A stretch of DNA of 6,021 nt from a virus. Lineage: Duplodnaviria > Heunggongvirae > Uroviricota > Caudoviricetes. The translations under genes and the position numbers were made by a program. The stretch covers positions 1-6,021 of the IMG/VR virus record IMGVR_UViG_2778261504_000009; one strand, 5' to 3'. The notes under the pieces were generated by a model. The model made no database searches, was not told the DNA's origin, and saw only the letters and a program-made list of their open reading frames with translations. This document shows, piece by piece, positions 1-6,021 of the stretch (the first letter of the stretch is position 1; the number at the start of each line of letters is the position of its first letter).

Positions 1-926
1 TCGCAGTACTGGCCGATGACATACAGCGCCCATTTGTCCACATCCGCCGCACCAAGACGTTTCCCCATGCCGTAGCGTGGATGGGTCAGCATATCCCACA
101 GACACCAGGCCATGTTATTGCTGTATGCTGGCTTAAACGTTCCGTCCCAGATACCGCTGTATTGCCGAGTCTGCGGGTTATAGTTCGACGGCACCTGCAG
201 AATACGCCCGCGCAGATGATAATTACGGCTCACCTGCTGGCTGCCGAACTGCTCCGAATCCACCTGTACGCCGACCAGTGCCGTGTTCGGGTAGCACTGT
301 TTCACATCGATGATTTCGGTGTATGACGACCAGAGCGTTTTGTTCTGCAGCTGGTCTGTGGTGCTGTCCGGCGTCATCCTGCGCATCCGGATATTGAACG
401 GGCGCGGCGGCAGGTCACCCACCACCACCGAGGCCAGATACTGCGACGTGGTTTTGCCCTTAATGGTGATGTCTTTTTCCGTCACCCAGCCACCGTTACG
501 CTGTATCTGAACCAGCAGGCGGACTTCCGATGGATTCCTGTCCCCCTTTGAAGTGGTTTCCACCAGTGCCTGCACACCGAAGGTAAAGCGCAGACGGTCG
601 ATGTTTGCCGACGTAATGGTCCGGGTAATCGGCGTGTCGTACTTCACCTCCGTACCCAGCACCGTCTCGGAGTCGGAGGATTCAAATCCCTCCGGCGGTG
701 TCTGCTCCTGCTCACCAGCCCGGAACACCACCGTGACACCGGAGATATTGGTATTCCCCTCACTGTCCAGCACTGGCGTACTGTTCAGCAGCACACTTTT
801 TAATCCCTCCACCGGACCTTCAATCGGCCCTTCACTGATGGCGTCTATCACGCTCAGCAGCGGGGATGATTTCAGGTTGTCCTTCGCTTCGCGCGGGGTA
901 TGCCCCTTACTGCTGCCTTTACCCAT
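1..926 (-). CDS. J: Tail tip / host-specificity protein J, N-terminal ~308 codons; gene runs off the window at position 1
   Basis: Not in the ORF track because no stop lies in the window. Reverse complement from ATG (complement of 924..926) reads MGKGSSKGHTPREAKDNLKSSPLLSVIDAISEGPIEGPVEGLKSVLLNST..., and near the window edge ...RQYSGIWDGTFKPAYSNNMAWCLWDMLTHPRYGMGKRLGAADVDKWALYVIGQYC, which matches lambda gpJ as I remember it. Sits 60 nt downstream of the I stop, as in lambda. Confidence 0.9.
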   Translation of the reverse strand, partial: MGKGSSKGHTPREAKDNLKSSPLLSVIDAISEGPIEGPVEGLKSVLLNSTPVLDSEGNTNISGVTVVFRAGEQEQTPPEGFESSDSETVLGTEVKYDTPITRTITSANIDRLRFTFGVQALVETTSKGDRNPSEVRLLVQIQRNGGWVTEKDITIKGKTTSQYLASVVVGDLPPRPFNIRMRRMTPDSTTDQLQNKTLWSSYTEIIDVKQCYPNTALVGVQVDSEQFGSQQVSRNYHLRGRILQVPSNYNPQTRQYSGIWDGTFKPAYSNNMAWCLWDMLTHPRYGMGKRLGAADVDKWALYVIGQYC

Positions 927-986
927 TCCTCTCGCTCCAGAAACGACAAAACCGCCCGCAGGCGGTTTCACATAAAACATTTTGCA

Positions 987-1628
987 TCAGCGACCAATCA
1001 CCACAACCTGACCACCATCCCCTTCGTCTGCCGTGCTGATTTCCTGCGAAATTACCCGTGACCCCACACGCATTTCACCGTACAGAACAGGCAGAACATT
1101 GCCCTGGGCAACCATGTTATCCAGTGATGAGAAATACGTGTTCTGCTTACCGTTATCCGTGCTGGTCGTTGTTGCGGTACTCGCTTTCGGTGCCAGCATC
1201 TGTGCAACACCGCCAAGCGTCATCGCTGCACCCATTGAAAAGAGAATGTCACTGAAAGCGATACTGATCCCCGGCATCCAGATTGCCGTAGCAATCAACG
1301 CCGCACCCAGCACCGCCTGAAACACACCGCCACTTTTTGCTCCCGCAAGACGCGGCACGATGTGGATCACGGCACCATTTGCCAGCGGCTCATTAAGACG
1401 GGATGATAATTCGGTTTCGCCTGCATCACGCCCGGCAATCCGTACCTGATACCAGCCGTCGCTCAGTTTCTGACGAAACGCCGGGAGCTGTGTGGCCAGT
1501 GCGCGGATGGCTTCAGCCCCCGTTTTCACACGAAGGTCGATGCGGCGGCCAAATCGTTGTAAATCCCCGTAAAGGCAGATGCGTGCCATGCCCGGTGACG
1601 CCAGAGGGAGTGTGTGCGTCGCTGCCAT
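987..1628 (-). CDS. I: Tail assembly protein I (lambda gpI-like), 213 aa
   Basis: ORF-track translation MAATHTLPLASPGMARICLYGDLQRFGRRIDLRVKTGAEAIRALATQLPAFRQKL... ...NGKQNTYFSSLDNMVAQGNVLPVLYGEMRVGSRVISQEISTADEGDGGQVVVIGR matches lambda gpI N- and C-termini from memory. Its 5' end overlaps the 3' end of K by 103 nt out of frame, as in lambda. Confidence 0.9.
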   Translation of the reverse strand: MAATHTLPLASPGMARICLYGDLQRFGRRIDLRVKTGAEAIRALATQLPAFRQKLSDGWYQVRIAGRDAGETELSSRLNEPLANGAVIHIVPRLAGAKSGGVFQAVLGAALIATAIWMPGISIAFSDILFSMGAAMTLGGVAQMLAPKASTATTTSTDNGKQNTYFSSLDNMVAQGNVLPVLYGEMRVGSRVISQEISTADEGDGGQVVVIGR

Positions 1629-2263
1629 TTGTCGGTATACCTCTCTCGTTTGCTCAGTTGTTCAGGAATATGGTGCAGCAGCTCGCCGTCGCCGCAGTAA
1701 ATAGCGGCATGATTCGGCACCGATGAACCAAAACAGCACAGCAGCACATCGCCCGGCTGCGCCGCTGACAACGGCACCTGATACAGCCCCGTTGCCTCCA
1801 GATTATCCAGATAGAGATTCTGACCGTGACGCCACCAGTCATCCCCGCGATGAAAATCCGGCATCTCAATCCCCGCCAGATGGTAAGCATCCCGGAACAG
1901 TGTGTAACAGTCCGTCACCCCGTGCTCAAAGCGCCGCCCGGTGAGATGCGGCACACAGCGGAATTTATGAATCTCACCCCGGCAGACCAGCCACCACGGC
2001 AAATCACTCTGCACCTGCAGCCGCCGGTCAGCCTCACTCAGCCAGGGCAGGCCACCGGGGTGGCTGTGGACCAGCGCCACAATCTCACCCTGCATTTTGG
2101 CCTGCAGCCAGTCCTCCGGAGCCATCCGGAAATAATCCTCCGGCTCACCGGAGATATTCACGCAGGGAAAATATCTTTCCCCCTCCGGCGTTCTCACCAC
2201 GAAGCCGCACGACTCCGCTGGCGCACATCGCCGGGCGTGCGCCAATATATTGCTATAGAGCAT
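1526..2263 (-). CDS. K: Tail assembly protein K (lambda gpK-like) with MPN/JAMM and NlpC/P60 peptidase motifs; start placed at the ATG with a strong SD (245 aa)
   Basis: Translation carries a JAMM-type motif HSHPGGLPWLSEAD (HxHx7Sx2D) and NlpC/P60-like Cys/His contexts (GVTDCYTLF, SVPNHAAIY). The ORF-track start at 2302 is rejected because codons 2-13 lie inside a hairpin/U-tract (2276..2299). The ATG at 2261..2263 is preceded by AGGAG (complement of 2269..2273) with a 5-nt spacer. An internal ATG at 2123..2125 would give the 199-aa length I recall for the classical lambda K annotation, so the start is uncertain. Confidence 0.85.
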   Translation of the reverse strand: MLYSNILAHARRCAPAESCGFVVRTPEGERYFPCVNISGEPEDYFRMAPEDWLQAKMQGEIVALVHSHPGGLPWLSEADRRLQVQSDLPWWLVCRGEIHKFRCVPHLTGRRFEHGVTDCYTLFRDAYHLAGIEMPDFHRGDDWWRHGQNLYLDNLEATGLYQVPLSAAQPGDVLLCCFGSSVPNHAAIYCGDGELLHHIPEQLSKRERYTDKWQRRTHSLWRHRAWHASAFTGIYNDLAAASTFV

Positions 2264-2275
2264 GAGAACTCCTGA

Positions 2276-2299
2276 TAAAAAACCCAGCCGAAGCTGGGT
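2276..2299 (-). terminator. Putative intrinsic terminator after ant: 6-7 bp GC-rich stem, UUCG loop, U6 tract, directly 5' of the K ribosome-binding site
   Basis: Minus-strand RNA reads CCCAGC-UUCG-GCUGGG-UUUUUU-AUC-AGGAG-UUCUC-AUG. Plus strand shows cccagc (2283..2288), loop cgaa, gctggg (2293..2298), with an A6 run at 2277..2282. Confidence 0.5.
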
Positions 2300-2317
2300 C
2301 ATTTCGTTGGCAATCTG

Positions 2318-3238
2318 TTAGTAGTGATGCAGTGAAGGAGGTAATTCTTTGTTCTTAAGTCTTAGCCATGCAGAAAGATTCGTTGGTCCGTCTGGCTCAT
2401 TAATATCAATATCTCGCGTGTGATTGATTAAAACGTCTCTCGCCATTCCAATAACATACGAGAACTCATGACCGTAGTCGTAGCATCTGCAGGAATAGTT
2501 CGATTGAATTTGCTTTAGCGCCGGATACAGTTCGCGGAATAATGCCTGTGAGCGGTTAGCATAATCCCATAACCATACAAGGCTGTTTGCTTCTTTTGCA
2601 GAAAGCTCGTTGGTTTTCTTCTCTTGTTTGCCAATGAACTCACCTTCAAGCGGAACGCGAGCAGCAAGTGACAGTGCTTCGGTAAACTGCTCCTCACTAA
2701 TTTCTTTGTACGAACATCCAAAATGGGATTTCAGTGACGACCACATGGTGATCATCGCCTTCGCCTGTTTTTCTTTTGGCAGAGACTGACCGCGACTCAT
2801 GACAAGTTGTTTAATGGCTTCCTGCTGTTCAGTGGTGATTTTCCCCAGCAATGCCTTTTTAGCTTTGCGCGGGTTAATCACATGGCCTTTAGTCCAGTAC
2901 TCGTAGAGCACATCGTCACACTCTTCCTGATACTGGATTACCTTCTCGCGGATTTCAGGGCGGACTTTGTTAGGACTGATGGTTTGGAGCCAACCATTCA
3001 GTTTACGCAAAGCAAGGCAAATCATGGTCTGCATACCGCCAACTGAAGGTATTGCGATTTCCACAATACCTTTAGCAAATCTTTGTTTTAACTTTGTAAA
3101 CTGTGAAGCCCAATCCATACCCATTCCCTCAACGATAGGTTTCATTGGGGTGTACGGTTCGCCGTTGTGATTGACGACATAAAGCTCTGCGCCGTGGAAT
3201 GGCACGTTGATAGTAGATACCGCTGTTGCTATACTCAT
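2318..3238 (-). CDS. ant: Ant-like phage antirepressor (P22 immI Ant family), 306 aa from the ATG start
   Basis: Translation MSIATAVSTINVPFHGAELYVVNHNGEPYTPMKPIVEGMGMDWASQFTKLKQ... has the look of phage antirepressor proteins and sits immediately downstream of an Arc-like gene, the P22 arc-ant order. The ORF-track start at 3292 is a GTG inside a hairpin; ATG at 3236..3238 is preceded by AGGAA (complement of 3247..3251). Family assignment is from memory and context, not from a search. Confidence 0.75.
   Translation of the reverse strand: MSIATAVSTINVPFHGAELYVVNHNGEPYTPMKPIVEGMGMDWASQFTKLKQRFAKGIVEIAIPSVGGMQTMICLALRKLNGWLQTISPNKVRPEIREKVIQYQEECDDVLYEYWTKGHVINPRKAKKALLGKITTEQQEAIKQLVMSRGQSLPKEKQAKAMITMWSSLKSHFGCSYKEISEEQFTEALSLAARVPLEGEFIGKQEKKTNELSAKEANSLVWLWDYANRSQALFRELYPALKQIQSNYSCRCYDYGHEFSYVIGMARDVLINHTRDIDINEPDGPTNLSAWLRLKNKELPPSLHHY
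3207..3235 (+). promoter_or_regulatory. Near-consensus sigma70-type promoter firing antisense across the ant start (Psar-like)
   Basis: TTGATA (3207..3212), 17-bp spacer, TATACT (3230..3235), with TG at 3227..3228 giving an extended -10 (TGcTATACT). Predicted start near 3242. Confidence 0.4.
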
Positions 3239-3241
3239 TTC

Positions 3242-3312
3242 GTTAGTTCCTTGGAAGTTACTGACATAGAAGCCCGATTTGTGTTCGCGCACTGTCGGGC
3301 TTCGCTATTTTT
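3242..3312 (+). ncRNA. Candidate sar-like small antisense RNA (~70 nt) complementary to the ant SD and the arc-ant intercistronic region
   Basis: Bounded by the promoter at 3207..3235 and a hairpin with 9-bp stem gaagcccga (3269..3277) / tcgggcttc (3295..3303) followed by gcUAUUUUUAU (3304..3314). Coordinates are approximate. Size and position mirror the P22 sar RNA as I recall it. Confidence 0.35.
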
Positions 3313-3314
3313 AT
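3269..3314 (+). terminator. Hairpin plus U-rich tract in the arc-ant intercistronic region; candidate terminator for the antisense RNA
   Basis: Perfect 9-bp inverted repeat 3269..3277 / 3295..3303 with a 17-nt loop that can form an inner GUG/CAC stem, followed after 2 nt by tattttta. The U tract is not directly adjacent to the stem, hence modest confidence. Confidence 0.35.
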
Positions 3315-3478
3315 GTCCTAGCATTCTTCTCTCCAATCAGTCCGTACACTTTTCTCAATTGATAAATAAGTTCCGTGTTGAACTGTCGACACTCTTTTTC
3401 TCCATTTCTTTCAATCGCCTTCCTTACATCCTCTGGGAAACGAACCTTGCGTTGATACATGTCTTTTGCTTTTTCCAT
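3311..3478 (-). CDS. arc: Arc-like ribbon-helix-helix repressor, 55 aa (not in the ORF track)
   Basis: Hand translation of the reverse complement gives MEKAKDMYQRKVRFPEDVRKAIERNGEKECRQFNTELIYQLRKVYGLIGEKNART, stop TAA at complement of 3311..3313. Resembles P22 Arc (...FNLRWPREVLDLVRKVAEENGRSVNSEIYQRVMESF...) in the R-x-P-x-E-V strand and N-x-E-I/L-Y-Q helix. Preceded by AAGGAG (complement of 3484..3489) 5 nt before the ATG. Confidence 0.75.
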   Translation of the reverse strand: MEKAKDMYQRKVRFPEDVRKAIERNGEKECRQFNTELIYQLRKVYGLIGEKNART

Positions 3479-3495
3479 CTCCACTCCTTAAATAG

Positions 3496-3558
3496 CCTCA
3501 CTGTGGGGCAATCAAAATTGTCACACCGTGCGTCATTGAAGTCAACCCCACCGTGGGG
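3496..3558. promoter_or_regulatory. Operator-like sites: three CACYGTG cores at 25-bp phasing, two embedded in 13-bp palindromes
   Basis: Perfect palindrome ccccac-c-gtgggg (3546..3558) and near-palindrome cctcac-t-gtgggg (3496..3508) share the core CCNCACYGTGGGGCA. A third caccgtg lies at 3524..3530. The cores start at 3499, 3524 and 3549. Confidence 0.45.
3517..3545 (-). promoter_or_regulatory. Candidate Pant-like promoter for arc-ant
   Basis: On the minus strand: TTGACT (complement of 3540..3545), 17-bp spacer, GACAAT (complement of 3517..3522) preceded by TGT (extended -10 form). Predicted start near 3510, about 30 nt upstream of the arc ATG. Confidence 0.4.
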
Positions 3559-3564
3559 CATAAT
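3536..3564 (+). promoter_or_regulatory. Candidate Pmnt-like promoter for the Mnt-like gene, back-to-back with the arc-ant promoter
   Basis: TTGAAG (3536..3541), 17-bp spacer, CATAAT (3559..3564). Its -35 overlaps the -35 of the divergent minus-strand promoter by 2 bp. Confidence 0.4.
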
Positions 3565-3601
3565 TTACTTATTGTGAATTTTTCCTGTTTGGACTAATGG
3601 T

Positions 3602-3976
3602 ATGAGTAGAGAAGACCCTCAACTTCGGATTAGGCTTCCTGTTGAATTAAAAAAAATAATTGAAGCGTCATCAAAACAAAATAATCGTTCTATGAATGCT
3701 GAGATTGTCACTCTGCTTGAGTTGGCGATTCGTGTTTGTCGTGATTTTGGGCCGGAGGATGGTCCTATCGTTCAGCAGTTTAAAGAACAACTAGATGCGA
3801 TAAACAGAAAATATGATAAAAGCGAGCATGAAAAACTTATACCTCAACTTTTAGAAATCATAGAAAAACAGAAAAAACAAGTAGATAAACTTATTAGCAT
3901 GGTTGAAAGATCAATTCCTCTTTCAGAGGAATATAAGCAGAAATATCTTGGTGATGACAACAAAAAACCCACCTGA
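3602..3976 (+). CDS. mnt: Mnt-like ribbon-helix-helix repressor with an extended charged C-terminal region, 124 aa
   Basis: N-terminus MSREDPQLRIRLPVELKKIIEASSKQNNRSMNAEIVTLLELAI resembles P22 Mnt (ARDDPHFNFRMPMEVREKL...NGRSMNSELLQIVQDAL) as recalled. The C-terminal ~80 residues are K/E/Q-rich and probably helical. Divergent from arc-ant as in P22 immI. The SD is weak. Confidence 0.75.
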   Translation: MSREDPQLRIRLPVELKKIIEASSKQNNRSMNAEIVTLLELAIRVCRDFGPEDGPIVQQFKEQLDAINRKYDKSEHEKLIPQLLEIIEKQKKQVDKLISMVERSIPLSEEYKQKYLGDDNKKPT

Positions 3977-3983
3977 TGGTGGG
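3962..3983 (-). terminator. Putative intrinsic terminator 3' of L, overlapping the stop codon of the convergent Mnt-like gene
   Basis: Minus-strand RNA reads CCCACC-AUCA-GGUGGG-UUUUUUGUUGU. Plus strand shows cccacc (3968..3973), loop tgat, ggtggg (3978..3983), preceded by an A6 run (3962..3967). The mnt TGA stop (3974..3976) lies in the loop. Confidence 0.45.
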
Positions 3984-3992
3984 CATAATCCA

Positions 3993-4691
3993 TTACTGCG
4001 AAAGTTTGTTAATGGAAAGGAAGCCGCCAAAGTTGCCGACGTTATTGCGAAACTTACAGCCACTCAGGCATTTGCTGCATTTATCCTTCGTGATATCGGA
4101 CGTCGGCTGGTCATATTCATCCGCGACAGCCGGACCGTTATAACCGCACTCATCACCGCGATAGGTCCAGGTGCAGGTGTTGGCCAGCATGATACGCCCC
4201 GGAAAAACAGCGCCATCCGTTTCCGTCGGCGTGGCCAGTACAAAGGAGGCACTCACCGCGCTCAGTTCACTGCACTGCTCGATGCGCCAGCGGCTGATCA
4301 CCTCCTGCTCCGGATCGGCGTCACTGTTTCCGTTGACGAAGTTCACCGCATCCAGAAAACGGGCGTAAACCTTACGCCTGACCACCGTTCCGCCGACCAG
4401 ACTCTGCATATCTTCCACCATACCGGTGACCATGCCGTACAGGTTAGAGACTGCCAGCGTGGGCCGCGTACTGGTGCCTTTGCCATTCAGTTCAAAACCG
4501 CTCCCCTGAATGGGATACGCCTGATACTGCCTCCCCTGCCAGGTGATCGGCTCACCTTTTTCGTTCTGCTCATTACAGAAAAAATAACGTTCTCCACCGA
4601 CCTCTGTCAGGTCGATTTCCCAGAGCACCACGCTGGCCGACTGCTCCGCACGGGTGCATTCATTCAGTGTTTCCTGCCGGATATCCTGCAT
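3993..4691 (-). CDS. L: Tail tip protein L (lambda gpL-like), 232 aa
   Basis: Translation MQDIRQETLNECTRAEQSASVVLWEIDLTEVGGERYFFCNEQNEKGEP...CSKCLSGCKFRNNVGNFGGFLSINKLSQ matches lambda gpL from memory. Start overlaps the M stop by 1 nt (TGATG). Confidence 0.9.
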   Translation of the reverse strand: MQDIRQETLNECTRAEQSASVVLWEIDLTEVGGERYFFCNEQNEKGEPITWQGRQYQAYPIQGSGFELNGKGTSTRPTLAVSNLYGMVTGMVEDMQSLVGGTVVRRKVYARFLDAVNFVNGNSDADPEQEVISRWRIEQCSELSAVSASFVLATPTETDGAVFPGRIMLANTCTWTYRGDECGYNGPAVADEYDQPTSDITKDKCSKCLSGCKFRNNVGNFGGFLSINKLSQ

Positions 4692-5020
4692 CAGTTCACC
4701 ACCTGTTCAAACTCTGCGCTGAACTCAACACGCAGCATACTGACCCGCGACGACCATTTTGCGCAGGTCACCTTTATCTGCCGCCACTCATAAGGCGGCG
4801 TCCACAGAAAGGCTTTCCAGCCCCCGTGCTCTTCCAGAAACGACTCCAGTACCGTGGCCTCCTCACGGGGGACAGAAAGCGTCACGCTGTACGTTTTCAG
4901 GTTGGCATTCAGCCCGGCAGGCGCTCGCTGGGAATAGCCATCACCAAAGCGCACCTTTCTTACAGAAGGGGCCGAAGCCACATCCATACCGGGTTTCACT
5001 TTCCAGCGGAAGGTTTTCAT
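4691..5020 (-). CDS. M: Tail tip protein M (lambda gpM-like), 109 aa
   Basis: Translation MKTFRWKVKPGMDVASAPSVRKVRFGDGYSQRAPAGLNANLKTYSVTLSVPREEATVLESFLEEHGGWKAFLWTPPYEWRQIKVTCAKWSSRVSMLRVEFSAEFEQVVN matches lambda gpM from memory. ATGA overlap with the H stop. Confidence 0.9.
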   Translation of the reverse strand: MKTFRWKVKPGMDVASAPSVRKVRFGDGYSQRAPAGLNANLKTYSVTLSVPREEATVLESFLEEHGGWKAFLWTPPYEWRQIKVTCAKWSSRVSMLRVEFSAEFEQVVN

Positions 5021-6021
5021 CGTCCACCTCCGGAGAACAGGCCACCATCACGCATCTGTGTCTGAATTTCATCACGGGCACCCTTGCGGGCCATGTCATA
5101 CACTGCCTTCATCATCTGTGGACCTGGCAGACCATTCGTACCGTCGTTCTGAATCACCACGTGATTGTTCTGATTAAAATTAATGCCTTCAGCCCGCCGC
5201 ATCTGCGCCGGACTTCCGGCACCGCCCACATAACCACCTTCCGCATAGCCCCGCATCAGGCGGTACAGGTTGCCGACACCAATCCGGCTGGTTGCCTCCT
5301 TCGTGAAGACAAATTCACCACGGTGAACAATCCCCGCTGGCTCATATTTGCCGCCGGTTCCCGTAAATCCCCCGGTCGCGAAATGGAAGTTCGCCGCCGC
5401 AGCCTGAATGGCCGTCCCCGTGGAGGCAGACGCACCACCACCGAAAGCACCGCCAATGGCGCTGCCGATACTCCCGACTATCCCCACCATCGCCTGCTTC
5501 AGAAAAATCTCTGTCAGCATGGAGAGCACAGAACGGGTGAAACCACGCCAGTTCTGTTCGCTGCCGGTCAGCATCGCTGCCATATTCTGTGCAATACCGT
5601 CAAAGGTCTGCGTGGCCGCGCTTTTAACCTGCGAAAAACTGTCCGTCGCACTTTCCGCCCACTCGCCCCAGCCGGACTTCAGCCCGGCCATCCAGCTTCC
5701 ACGAAGCTGCTCCTCCGCAGACCAGGTGTTCTTCAGTGCAGATGTGGCCTTCGCCAGCGCAGCCGGATTATCACCGTACACGTCACGAAGGCGCTGCTCT
5801 TCCGACTCCCGCTGCGCCTGACGGTCGGTGAGGCCGCGGGCTTTTGCGCTGATGGCTGCCTGCTTCGCGCTCTGCTGCTGTTCAAACCGCGCCGCCTGCT
5901 GTGCCAGCTCATTCAGCCGTTTCTGGTGTTCAACCTTGTCGCCAAGCTCAGCCAGCTGGCGTTTGTACTCCAGCGTCTCTTTCTCATGGGTCAGCAGGGA
6001 TTTTTCCTGCTCAGATAACTG
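5017..6021 (-). CDS. H: Tail tape-measure protein H, C-terminal ~334 codons; 5' part lies beyond the window
   Basis: The frame is open from the window edge: reverse complement from 6021 reads QLSEQEKSLLTHEKETLEYKRQLAELGDKVEHQKRLNELAQQAARFEQQQSAKQAAISAKARGLTDRQAQRESEEQRLRDVYGDNPAALAKAT... and ends ...RDGGLFSGGGR, matching the lambda gpH C-terminus from memory. The ORF-track M at 5781 is an internal GTG (Val), not a start. Confidence 0.9.
   Translation of the reverse strand, partial: QLSEQEKSLLTHEKETLEYKRQLAELGDKVEHQKRLNELAQQAARFEQQQSAKQAAISAKARGLTDRQAQRESEEQRLRDVYGDNPAALAKATSALKNTWSAEEQLRGSWMAGLKSGWGEWAESATDSFSQVKSAATQTFDGIAQNMAAMLTGSEQNWRGFTRSVLSMLTEIFLKQAMVGIVGSIGSAIGGAFGGGASASTGTAIQAAAANFHFATGGFTGTGGKYEPAGIVHRGEFVFTKEATSRIGVGNLYRLMRGYAEGGYVGGAGSPAQMRRAEGINFNQNNHVVIQNDGTNGLPGPQMMKAVYDMARKGARDEIQTQMRDGGLFSGGGR

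Follow-up and report, generated by a model that had tools for sequence, protein, structure and literature searches.

We describe here the junction between a tail gene and a repressor gene in a tailed virus (Caudoviricetes; IMG/VR virus record IMGVR_UViG_2778261504_000009), of which positions 1 to 6,021 make up the window, that is, the whole stretch of 6,021 nucleotides (nt) that was analysed. The window covers the tail tip of a lambda-type late operon, with its genes on the minus strand and strong Pfam matches throughout, and between tail genes L and K it holds a block of 1.75 kb (2245..3992) composed of mnt-like, Arc-like, sar-like and ant units. At the L side of this block, L and the mnt-like gene run towards each other and meet at a small hairpin, which is the subject of this report and which, as we shall argue, is probably a transcription terminator for the late strand. 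The features that form the junction are the following:

3993..4691, minus strand: tail gene L (Pfam Phage_tail_L, E=1.4e-100), with its stop codon TAA at 3995..3993.
3602..3976, plus strand: gene for a Mnt-like ribbon-helix-helix (RHH) repressor of 124 amino acids (Pfam Arc, E=3e-7), with its stop codon TGA at 3974..3976.
3967..3984, minus strand: predicted terminator hairpin, from a consensus scan and folding.
3962..3967, minus strand: T-tract of the predicted late-strand terminator, UUUUUU in the RNA and then GUUGU at 3961..3957, from the sequence and the scan.
3985..3992, no strand assigned: conserved 8-nt linker from the stem to the L stop, which together with C3984 forms the 9-nt CATAATCCA of the plus strand.

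The two stop codons lie on opposite strands with 16 nt (3977..3992) between them, just as an initial annotation of this sequence had it. The same annotation placed a terminator hairpin between the stops and had it overlap that of mnt; the overlap is real, but the hairpin straddles the mnt stop rather than lying between the two, since its arms, CCCACC at 3968..3973 (5') and GGTGGG at 3978..3983 (3'), enclose the loop TGAT (3974..3977) that holds the TGA. Read as minus-strand RNA, the element is GCCCACC-AUCA-GGUGGGU followed by UUUUUGUUGU, the onward sequence of that strand being UUUUUUGUUGU, and it gains a seventh pair, G3984-U3967, that forms on this strand only. The minus-strand form has a GC-rich stem of seven pairs (five of them G-C), a loop of 4 nt and a U-tract directly 3' of the stem, and the L TAA lies 8 nt upstream of that stem. 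On the plus strand the stem is followed by CAUAAUCCAUUA, which contains no U-tract and lacks the form of an intrinsic terminator, while the T-tract at 3962..3967 is AAAAAA, that is, the two Lys codons of the Mnt-like C-terminus; the last four codons of this protein, KKPT, and its stop are encoded by the A-tract, the 5' arm and the loop of the hairpin.

The consensus terminator scan calls the hairpin on the minus strand only, which, together with the position of the T-tract and the folding, upholds the earlier statement that terminator anatomy is confined to the L direction. Over a span of 34 nt the predicted folding energy is -12.6 kcal/mol on the minus strand and -11.8 kcal/mol on the plus strand (z-scores of -2.6 and -2.9), and the folding of the hairpin was matched by 2 of 200 shuffles. 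Terminator-like sites number 12 in the window against 5.6 +/- 2.5 in shuffled sequences, and the two with the highest scores, this hairpin and a second stem at 2281..2300, are exactly the two borders of the cassette. A chance origin of the hairpin is unlikely, mainly because the junction is conserved. The L 3' end and the conserved linker also compose a promoter-like site at 4012..3985 on the minus strand (TTAACA-16-GATTAT, 9/12 matches), from which transcription would start within the hairpin, escape termination and yield RNA antisense to mnt; this site is probably due to chance, given that promoter-like hits in the window number 6 against 4.3 in shuffles.

Of 5426 complete E. coli genomes, 460 contain the junction, as do 22 phage records; among the latter are isolated, plaque-forming phages (2851, 1717, YYZ-2008, vB_EcoS_phi330 and PhiR12_1/4/5), in which it is identical. 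Four types of cassette occupy the L/K site. Their mnt, operator and arc sequences are unrelated, and some also differ in the N-terminal domain of ant; besides the type in the window there are those of Stx2a_WGPS8 and O157 Z903 and one in which mnt is followed by an extra ClpP-like gene. Common to all four are the 31 nt that adjoin L, AAAAAA[C/A]CCACCTGA[C/T]GGTGGGCATAATCCA, and the homology between the types begins abruptly at the A-tract. When IMG/VR loci were anchored independently of the junction, on the K-side border, the hairpin was found 9 nt from the L stop in 37 of the 38 that were informative, the sole exception being disrupted by an insertion sequence. One cassette-bearing IMG/VR contig (L163) has a transposase-like open reading frame where mnt and the hairpin would be expected, together with a truncated L. 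In the fourth cassette type a plus-strand gene for a ClpP-like protein of 178 amino acids (Pfam CLP_protease, E=1.6e-11) overlaps the end of a short Mnt-like gene (ATGA) and ends 25 nt before the hairpin (about 7447..7983 in L019 and about 2050..2586 in L063, both from IMG/VR). A minus-strand gene of 85 amino acids directly past the T-tract, which had been considered for this type, was rejected, the true gene being the plus-strand ClpP-like frame. The Z903-type Mnt (…YGEDKKPT*) looks as if the Mnt of the fourth type (…YGKDEK*) had been joined to the hairpin when the ClpP-like gene was deleted.

The element is also found away from L. The mnt gene of phage P22 ends in ...AAAAAAACCACCTGACGGCGGG, AAA AAA ACC ACC TGA CGGCGGG (KKTT*), which is homologous to it, and contigs anchored on the P22-type mnt coding sequence carry it in 111 of 113 cases; across these P22-type copies all four bases occur at the fourth loop position, and the stem is kept. 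The A-tract joined to the core, a 21-mer, proved to be a specific query, whereas the bare 15-nt core gave many unrelated chance matches and was abandoned. The collected contigs contain 148 copies of the 21-mer in all, and 98 of these close an open reading frame of at least 60 amino acids, almost always one for an RHH protein of the Mnt-like kind. Divergent Mnt-like proteins, at least 25 of them, whose C-terminal halves are unrelated (L007-L312, IMG/VR), all end in KKPT* from an identical A-tract, stem and loop. A few copies have AAAAAG for Lys-Lys and hence a shorter T-tract on the opposite strand. The hairpin is therefore a 3' module that the mnt gene family has conserved and from which its members take their last four codons and their stop.

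What follows the stem on the mnt side depends on the neighbourhood. In contexts other than L, 73 of 101 copies have at least five Ts in the 8 nt past the stem; at L junctions all 43 of 43 copies have fewer than five, each carrying CATAATCCA, and the linker 3985..3992 occupies the place that the T-rich tail holds after the hairpin in most other phage contexts. From its sequence, then, the element looks bidirectional in most phages, with the mnt-side tail lost at the L junction. Variants of the stem (GGTGAG, GGCGGG in P22, GGTAGG and GGTGGA) are rare, are all transitions and all fall in the non-coding arm; each of the four makes a G.U wobble on the late-sense (minus) RNA and a mismatch on the mnt-sense (plus) RNA, so that 95.8% of cells are paired in the late sense and 88.9% in the mnt sense. 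This asymmetry is weak, and it favours the late-sense helix as the one that is conserved.

The origin of the junction can be read from phages that lack the block. In lambda the L TAA is followed by atccc (5 nt) and the ATG of K, with neither cassette nor hairpin, and in the cassette-free E. coli PCP06102 by tccc (4 nt) and the ATG of K; because L and K lie 4-5 nt apart, free of the hairpin, in lambda and in thousands of E. coli prophages, the hairpin must have arrived with the cassette. The 3' end of L, which in the window is 100% identical to that of lambda L, is present in 4310 complete E. coli genomes, of which the 460 with the hairpin junction form a part, most being without it. Set against lambda, 2245..3992 stands in for about 29 nt, including the first seven codons of K, and since these codons differ from those of lambda K (the N-terminus is MLYSNILAHA in the window and MTQTESAILAHA in lambda, having been swapped along with the cassette), the joint lies inside K. 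Morons, in the concept of Hendrix and colleagues, are accessory cassettes of lambdoid phages that sit in late operons with a promoter and terminator of their own; absent from otherwise collinear relatives and bounded by sharp junctions, the block is an inserted accessory cassette of this kind. A minus-strand ATG at 3984..3986, 6 nt past the L stop (TAA-TGGATT-ATG), opens a frame of just 30 codons. It looks like the L-K junction of lambda (TAA-ATCCC-ATG) in displaced form and may be what is left of the old K start where the cassette went in. The remaining genes of the host operon, all assigned by Pfam, are these:

From 5017, minus strand: C-terminus of the tape-measure protein.
4691..5020, minus strand: gene M.
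1526..2263, minus strand: tail gene K.
987..1628, minus strand: gene I.
After I, minus strand: gene J, of which only the start is present.

A prophage of E. coli Res13-Lact-PEA14-20 matches the window at 99.9% identity. It lies in the lambda attachment region, beside bioA/ybhB, and beyond its tail fibre genes it carries genes for type III effectors of the EspJ family and EspS (10678..12760 of L004).

By its gene content and sequence, the block 2245..3992 is a P22-type immI ('second immunity') cassette. In addition to the Mnt-like gene its parts are:

3496..3564, no strand assigned: putative divergent promoter/operator region, from a promoter scan and the sequence.
3545..3517, minus strand: promoter-like TTGACT-17-GACAAT directed towards arc-ant, from the scan.
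3536..3564, plus strand: promoter-like TTGAAG-17-CATAAT directed towards mnt, from the scan.
3496..3508, no strand assigned: palindrome CCTCAC-T-GTGGGG, from the sequence.
3546..3558, no strand assigned: palindrome CCCCAC-C-GTGGGG, from the sequence.
3311..3478, minus strand: Arc-like small RHH gene (Pfam Arc, E=1.2e-3, 19.1 bits against a cutoff of 20.4).
3207..3315, plus strand: sar-like antisense RNA unit, from promoter, hairpin and position.
2318..3238, minus strand: P22-type antirepressor gene ant (Pfam P22_AR_N, E=1.1e-44, and P22_AR_C, E=4.3e-29; RefSeq coordinates).
2275..2300, minus strand: predicted second late-strand terminator, GACCCAGC-UUCG-GCUGGGUU and then UUUUAU, with its stem at 2281..2300.

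The N-terminus of the Mnt-like protein is 33% identical to that of P22 Mnt (BLASTP, E=2e-10 over the RHH domain) and its Pfam Arc match lies above the curated cutoff, while the C-terminal half is unrelated to P22 Mnt. The Arc-like gene, whose Pfam score falls below the cutoff and which RefSeq labels a hypothetical protein, has the position and size of its P22 counterpart. By analogy with P22, the two related palindromes that overlap the divergent promoter-like sites are probably operators, and the region 3496..3564 would function as Pant/Pmnt and Oarc/Omnt do there. The sar-like unit opens with TTGATA-17-TATACT, with TG (3207..3235, plus strand), the highest-ranking promoter match of the window, which faces the ribosome-binding site of ant, and contains a hairpin at 3269..3303, then GCUAUUUUUAU, with a folding energy of -30.1 kcal/mol (z=-4.1) and a U-tract after it. 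A scan of the whole window against Rfam at E<=1 returned no match, to sar or any other family, and the unit is best regarded as an analogue of sar by position and architecture only, not as a member of that family. Past ant, the second predicted terminator directly precedes the ribosome-binding site of K, its U-tract ending 11 nt ahead of the K start codon; its stem at 2281..2300 aligns with the annotated t-ant sequence of P22, AAAAAAACCCAGCCGAAGCTGGGTC, and is homologous to it.

We consider it probable, with moderate confidence, that the hairpin at 3967..3984 and the T-tract at 3962..3967 form a Rho-independent terminator of the late strand, a conserved entry border of the immI cassette between L and K, which insulates the cassette against transcription that has not been antiterminated and lets late transcription pass during lytic growth. 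A polymerase unmodified by Q that drifts down the tail operon, be it in a lysogen or early in infection, would halt at 3957..3963 and so would reach neither mnt, in antisense, nor arc-ant, in sense; entry into either could lower Mnt or make antirepressor and so destabilise lysogeny. The t-ant homologue at 2281..2300 would do the converse job, that of keeping Pant transcripts out of K-I-J. Q antitermination is established for lambdoid late operons, and in lytic growth Q-modified polymerase would pass both terminators; that the signals are passed at this stage is indicated by the location of K, I, J and the fibre genes downstream and by the plaque-forming phages that carry the junction. The statement in the initial annotation that antiterminated late transcription would traverse mnt antisense and arc-ant in sense is borne out to this extent, K, I and J being downstream on the same strand and the identical junction occurring in phages that form plaques. 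On translated L mRNA, a ribosome terminating at the L stop would mask the hairpin, because that stop is just 8 nt from the stem; terminators located a few base pairs past a stop codon undergo near-complete repression by the terminating ribosome and reach full efficiency only beyond about 30 base pairs (PMC4824070). Terminators within operons may serve to stop spurious transcription in the absence of antitermination, their roles being stated as unknown, and a location of immI within the late operon is the known arrangement in P22 (PMC8022706). The open-access literature that was searched has nothing on the L/K junction of Shiga toxin (Stx) phages or on how it is transcribed, which does not prove that no account has been published.

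Several points weigh against a late-strand terminator. The wobble asymmetry amounts to four events and is confounded by the other arm being coding (Pro-Thr), and the shuffle control for it was uninformative; a covariation test of the stem variants found zero double compensatory changes. The A-tract also supplies two Lys codons, and coding alone could have produced the minus-strand T-tract. The T-rich tail of the 73 non-L copies may mean that the element was ancestrally a terminator mainly of mnt. Finally, the near-invariance of the junction may reflect recent spread or recombination and not functional selection.

The mnt strand deserves separate treatment. Intrinsic termination there is unlikely, since no U-tract is present and the stop codon sits inside the loop, and the same stem-loop would be unable to terminate in this direction. 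The antisense-L RNA past mnt is untranslated and richer in C than in G from about 4017 onward (C/G 1.1-2.0), which makes it plausible that mnt transcripts end by Rho-dependent termination inside antisense-L and are then trimmed by exonucleases back to the hairpin, which would act as a protective 3' end. The scan found one plus-strand terminator-like site within L and none other, and in particular none linked to the cassette:

4541..4567, plus strand: terminator-like hairpin and T-run antisense to L (site 4541..4557), from the scan.

As a terminator for mnt this site was rejected as coincidental, for it is present also in the cassette-free L of L001 and degraded in the WGPS8 and Z903 prophages. 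The reading proposed in the initial annotation was that convergent transcription here brings about mutual interference, mnt transcripts running antisense into L and antiterminated late transcription silencing mnt and driving arc-ant. The geometry for this exists: the layout is convergent, the plus strand has no U-tract, as had been noted, and expression of K-I-J requires late read-through. A precedent is available in STnc6030, an RNA antisense to late genes that is expressed in lysogens of the P22-like prophage BTP1 (PMC7067206). Passage of the mnt transcript into L is an inference, an end by Rho being at least as likely given that the untranslated, C-over-G RNA past mnt is a plausible Rho substrate. 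L, moreover, has neither a cassette-linked plus-strand terminator nor a conserved antisense feature, and in the fourth cassette type the ClpP-like gene separates mnt from the hairpin, which means that the overlap geometry of mnt and L is not conserved; once Q is active, lysis has in any case been decided and interference would have little regulatory value. We therefore regard mutual interference as unlikely, if worth serious attention, and the initial interpretation as a whole as partly supported.

Somewhat less probable still is that the hairpin is primarily a 3' element of the mnt strand, ancestrally a bidirectional or mnt-direction terminator that at the L junction stabilises the 3' end of mnt mRNA, its minus-strand appearance being a by-product of the AAAAAA Lys codons. 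The 98 of 148 copies that close a Mnt-like frame speak for this, as do the T-rich sequences past the stem in most non-L contexts (for example GGTGGG-TTAATTTTTG and GGTGGG-TTTTATTAG) and the stability of the plus-strand hairpin. At the L junction, however, the plus tail is CAUAAUCC and falls short of five Ts in every copy; the stop codon lies in the loop, so that a ribosome terminating there sits over the hairpin; variants of the stem weaken the helix of the plus strand and keep that of the minus strand; and in P22 the plus-strand stem is itself broken, the annotated mnt terminator lying past orf59a. This reading is compatible with a late-strand terminator and does not exclude it.

A more elaborate proposal, to which we give a low probability, combines the two directions: the junction would be an insulator gated by direction and translation, killing only late-strand transcription that is neither translated nor antiterminated, and Pmnt transcripts in lysogens would in addition extend antisense over L (and M), silencing leaky expression of tail genes or that of a superinfecting phage. 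In this proposal such transcripts would extend over L because the mnt-side U-tract was lost on insertion beside L, and STnc6030, by which BTP1 is excluded, would be the analogue.

Slightly more doubtful again is that the junction is merely a boundary sequence, inherited from a common ancestor and serving homologous exchange between cassettes, without any part in transcription. The abrupt onset of inter-cassette homology at the A-tract would be expected of such a sequence, variation at the L junction is almost nil, and the GenBank record of CUS-3 annotates 'boundary sequences' around ant. Exchange, however, would not need these 31 nt, L and K offering far longer homology, and a boundary sequence does not explain the full canonical terminator anatomy, a loop base that is free to vary while the stem is kept, or a partner border homologous to an annotated P22 terminator. 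That the inverted repeat is bound by protein, as a further operator for Mnt or Arc, is very improbable: although its flank GGTGGGCATAAT is similar to GTGGGGCATAAT, into which the palindrome at 3546..3558 runs on (3553..3564, the putative operator and -10 of Pmnt), the half-sites are spaced by 4 nt instead of 1 nt and the WGPS8 and Z903 types, with different RHH proteins and operator regions, have the same hairpin, so that the idea, which arose from the shared GGGCATAAT motif, was rejected, cassettes with other operators keeping the hairpin and the likeness being judged coincidental.

A late-strand terminator at the entry of the cassette would be a fairly ordinary example of the insulation of a phage accessory module, and it extends the paradigms of P22 immI and of morons to lambda-type tail operons without overturning current understanding. 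Its interest lies partly in its distribution: about 8% of complete E. coli genomes have the junction, and so do many Shiga-toxin phages, in which an antirepressor cassette within the tail operon could link the induction of prophages that share a host, or unlink it. The two late-strand terminators that appear to bracket the cassette offer a testable handle on the silence of the antirepressor in lysogens, and the one at the entry is common to unrelated Mnt variants, whose last four codons it supplies. It would also show, in a natural setting, how a recombination joint can uncouple the two directions of a terminator, and the stop codons, one 8 nt off and the other in the loop, are within the range of known ribosome masking of terminators.

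Among known systems, the closest is immI of P22 (mnt / Pmnt-Pant / arc / sar / ant / t-ant), with which the cassette shares gene order and orientation relative to the late operon (mnt antisense, arc-ant in sense), an Ant with both P22_AR domains, and a sar-like promoter/terminator pair between arc and ant. The P22 module lies between genes 16 and 9 of a podovirus late operon, whereas the cassette described here lies between L and K of a long-tailed, lambda-type one; the Mnt-like protein here has 124 amino acids and an unrelated C-terminal half, the operators differ, and there is no Rfam match to sar. In P22, orf59a and sieA stand between mnt and the preceding late gene, whereas the cassette in the window directly adjoins L; orf59a follows mnt on the same strand, and the annotated mnt terminator comes only beyond it. 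The P22 copy of the hairpin (CCACC/GGCGG; 2745..2775 of L006) has an A.C mismatch on the mnt-sense RNA and a G.U pair on the late-sense RNA. Like the morons of lambdoid phages, the cassette is an autonomous unit between tightly packed late genes that are adjacent in relatives, has predicted intrinsic terminators at its bounds and is of a kind expressed in lysogens; it differs in that its cargo is a regulatory immunity module and not a gene for host fitness, and in that one terminator would face incoming late transcription instead of marking the end of the cassette's own transcript. The layout of bidirectional terminators between convergent genes (A-tract, hairpin, U-tract) is that of this hairpin in most other phages, and bidirectional terminators with unequal efficiencies in the two directions have been described (PMC4824070); at the L junction, in contrast, the tail is CATAATCCA, the canonical anatomy is present one way only, and the stops are in the loop and 8 nt off. 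STnc6030 of BTP1, which is likewise antisense to late structural genes and comes from the variable region that immI holds in P22 (PMC7067206), is a precedent for the possible fate of an unterminated mnt transcript. Taken with these systems, the hairpin is probably best understood as the terminator border, conserved and by now working in one direction, of an immI cassette that was transplanted into a lambda-type tail operon.

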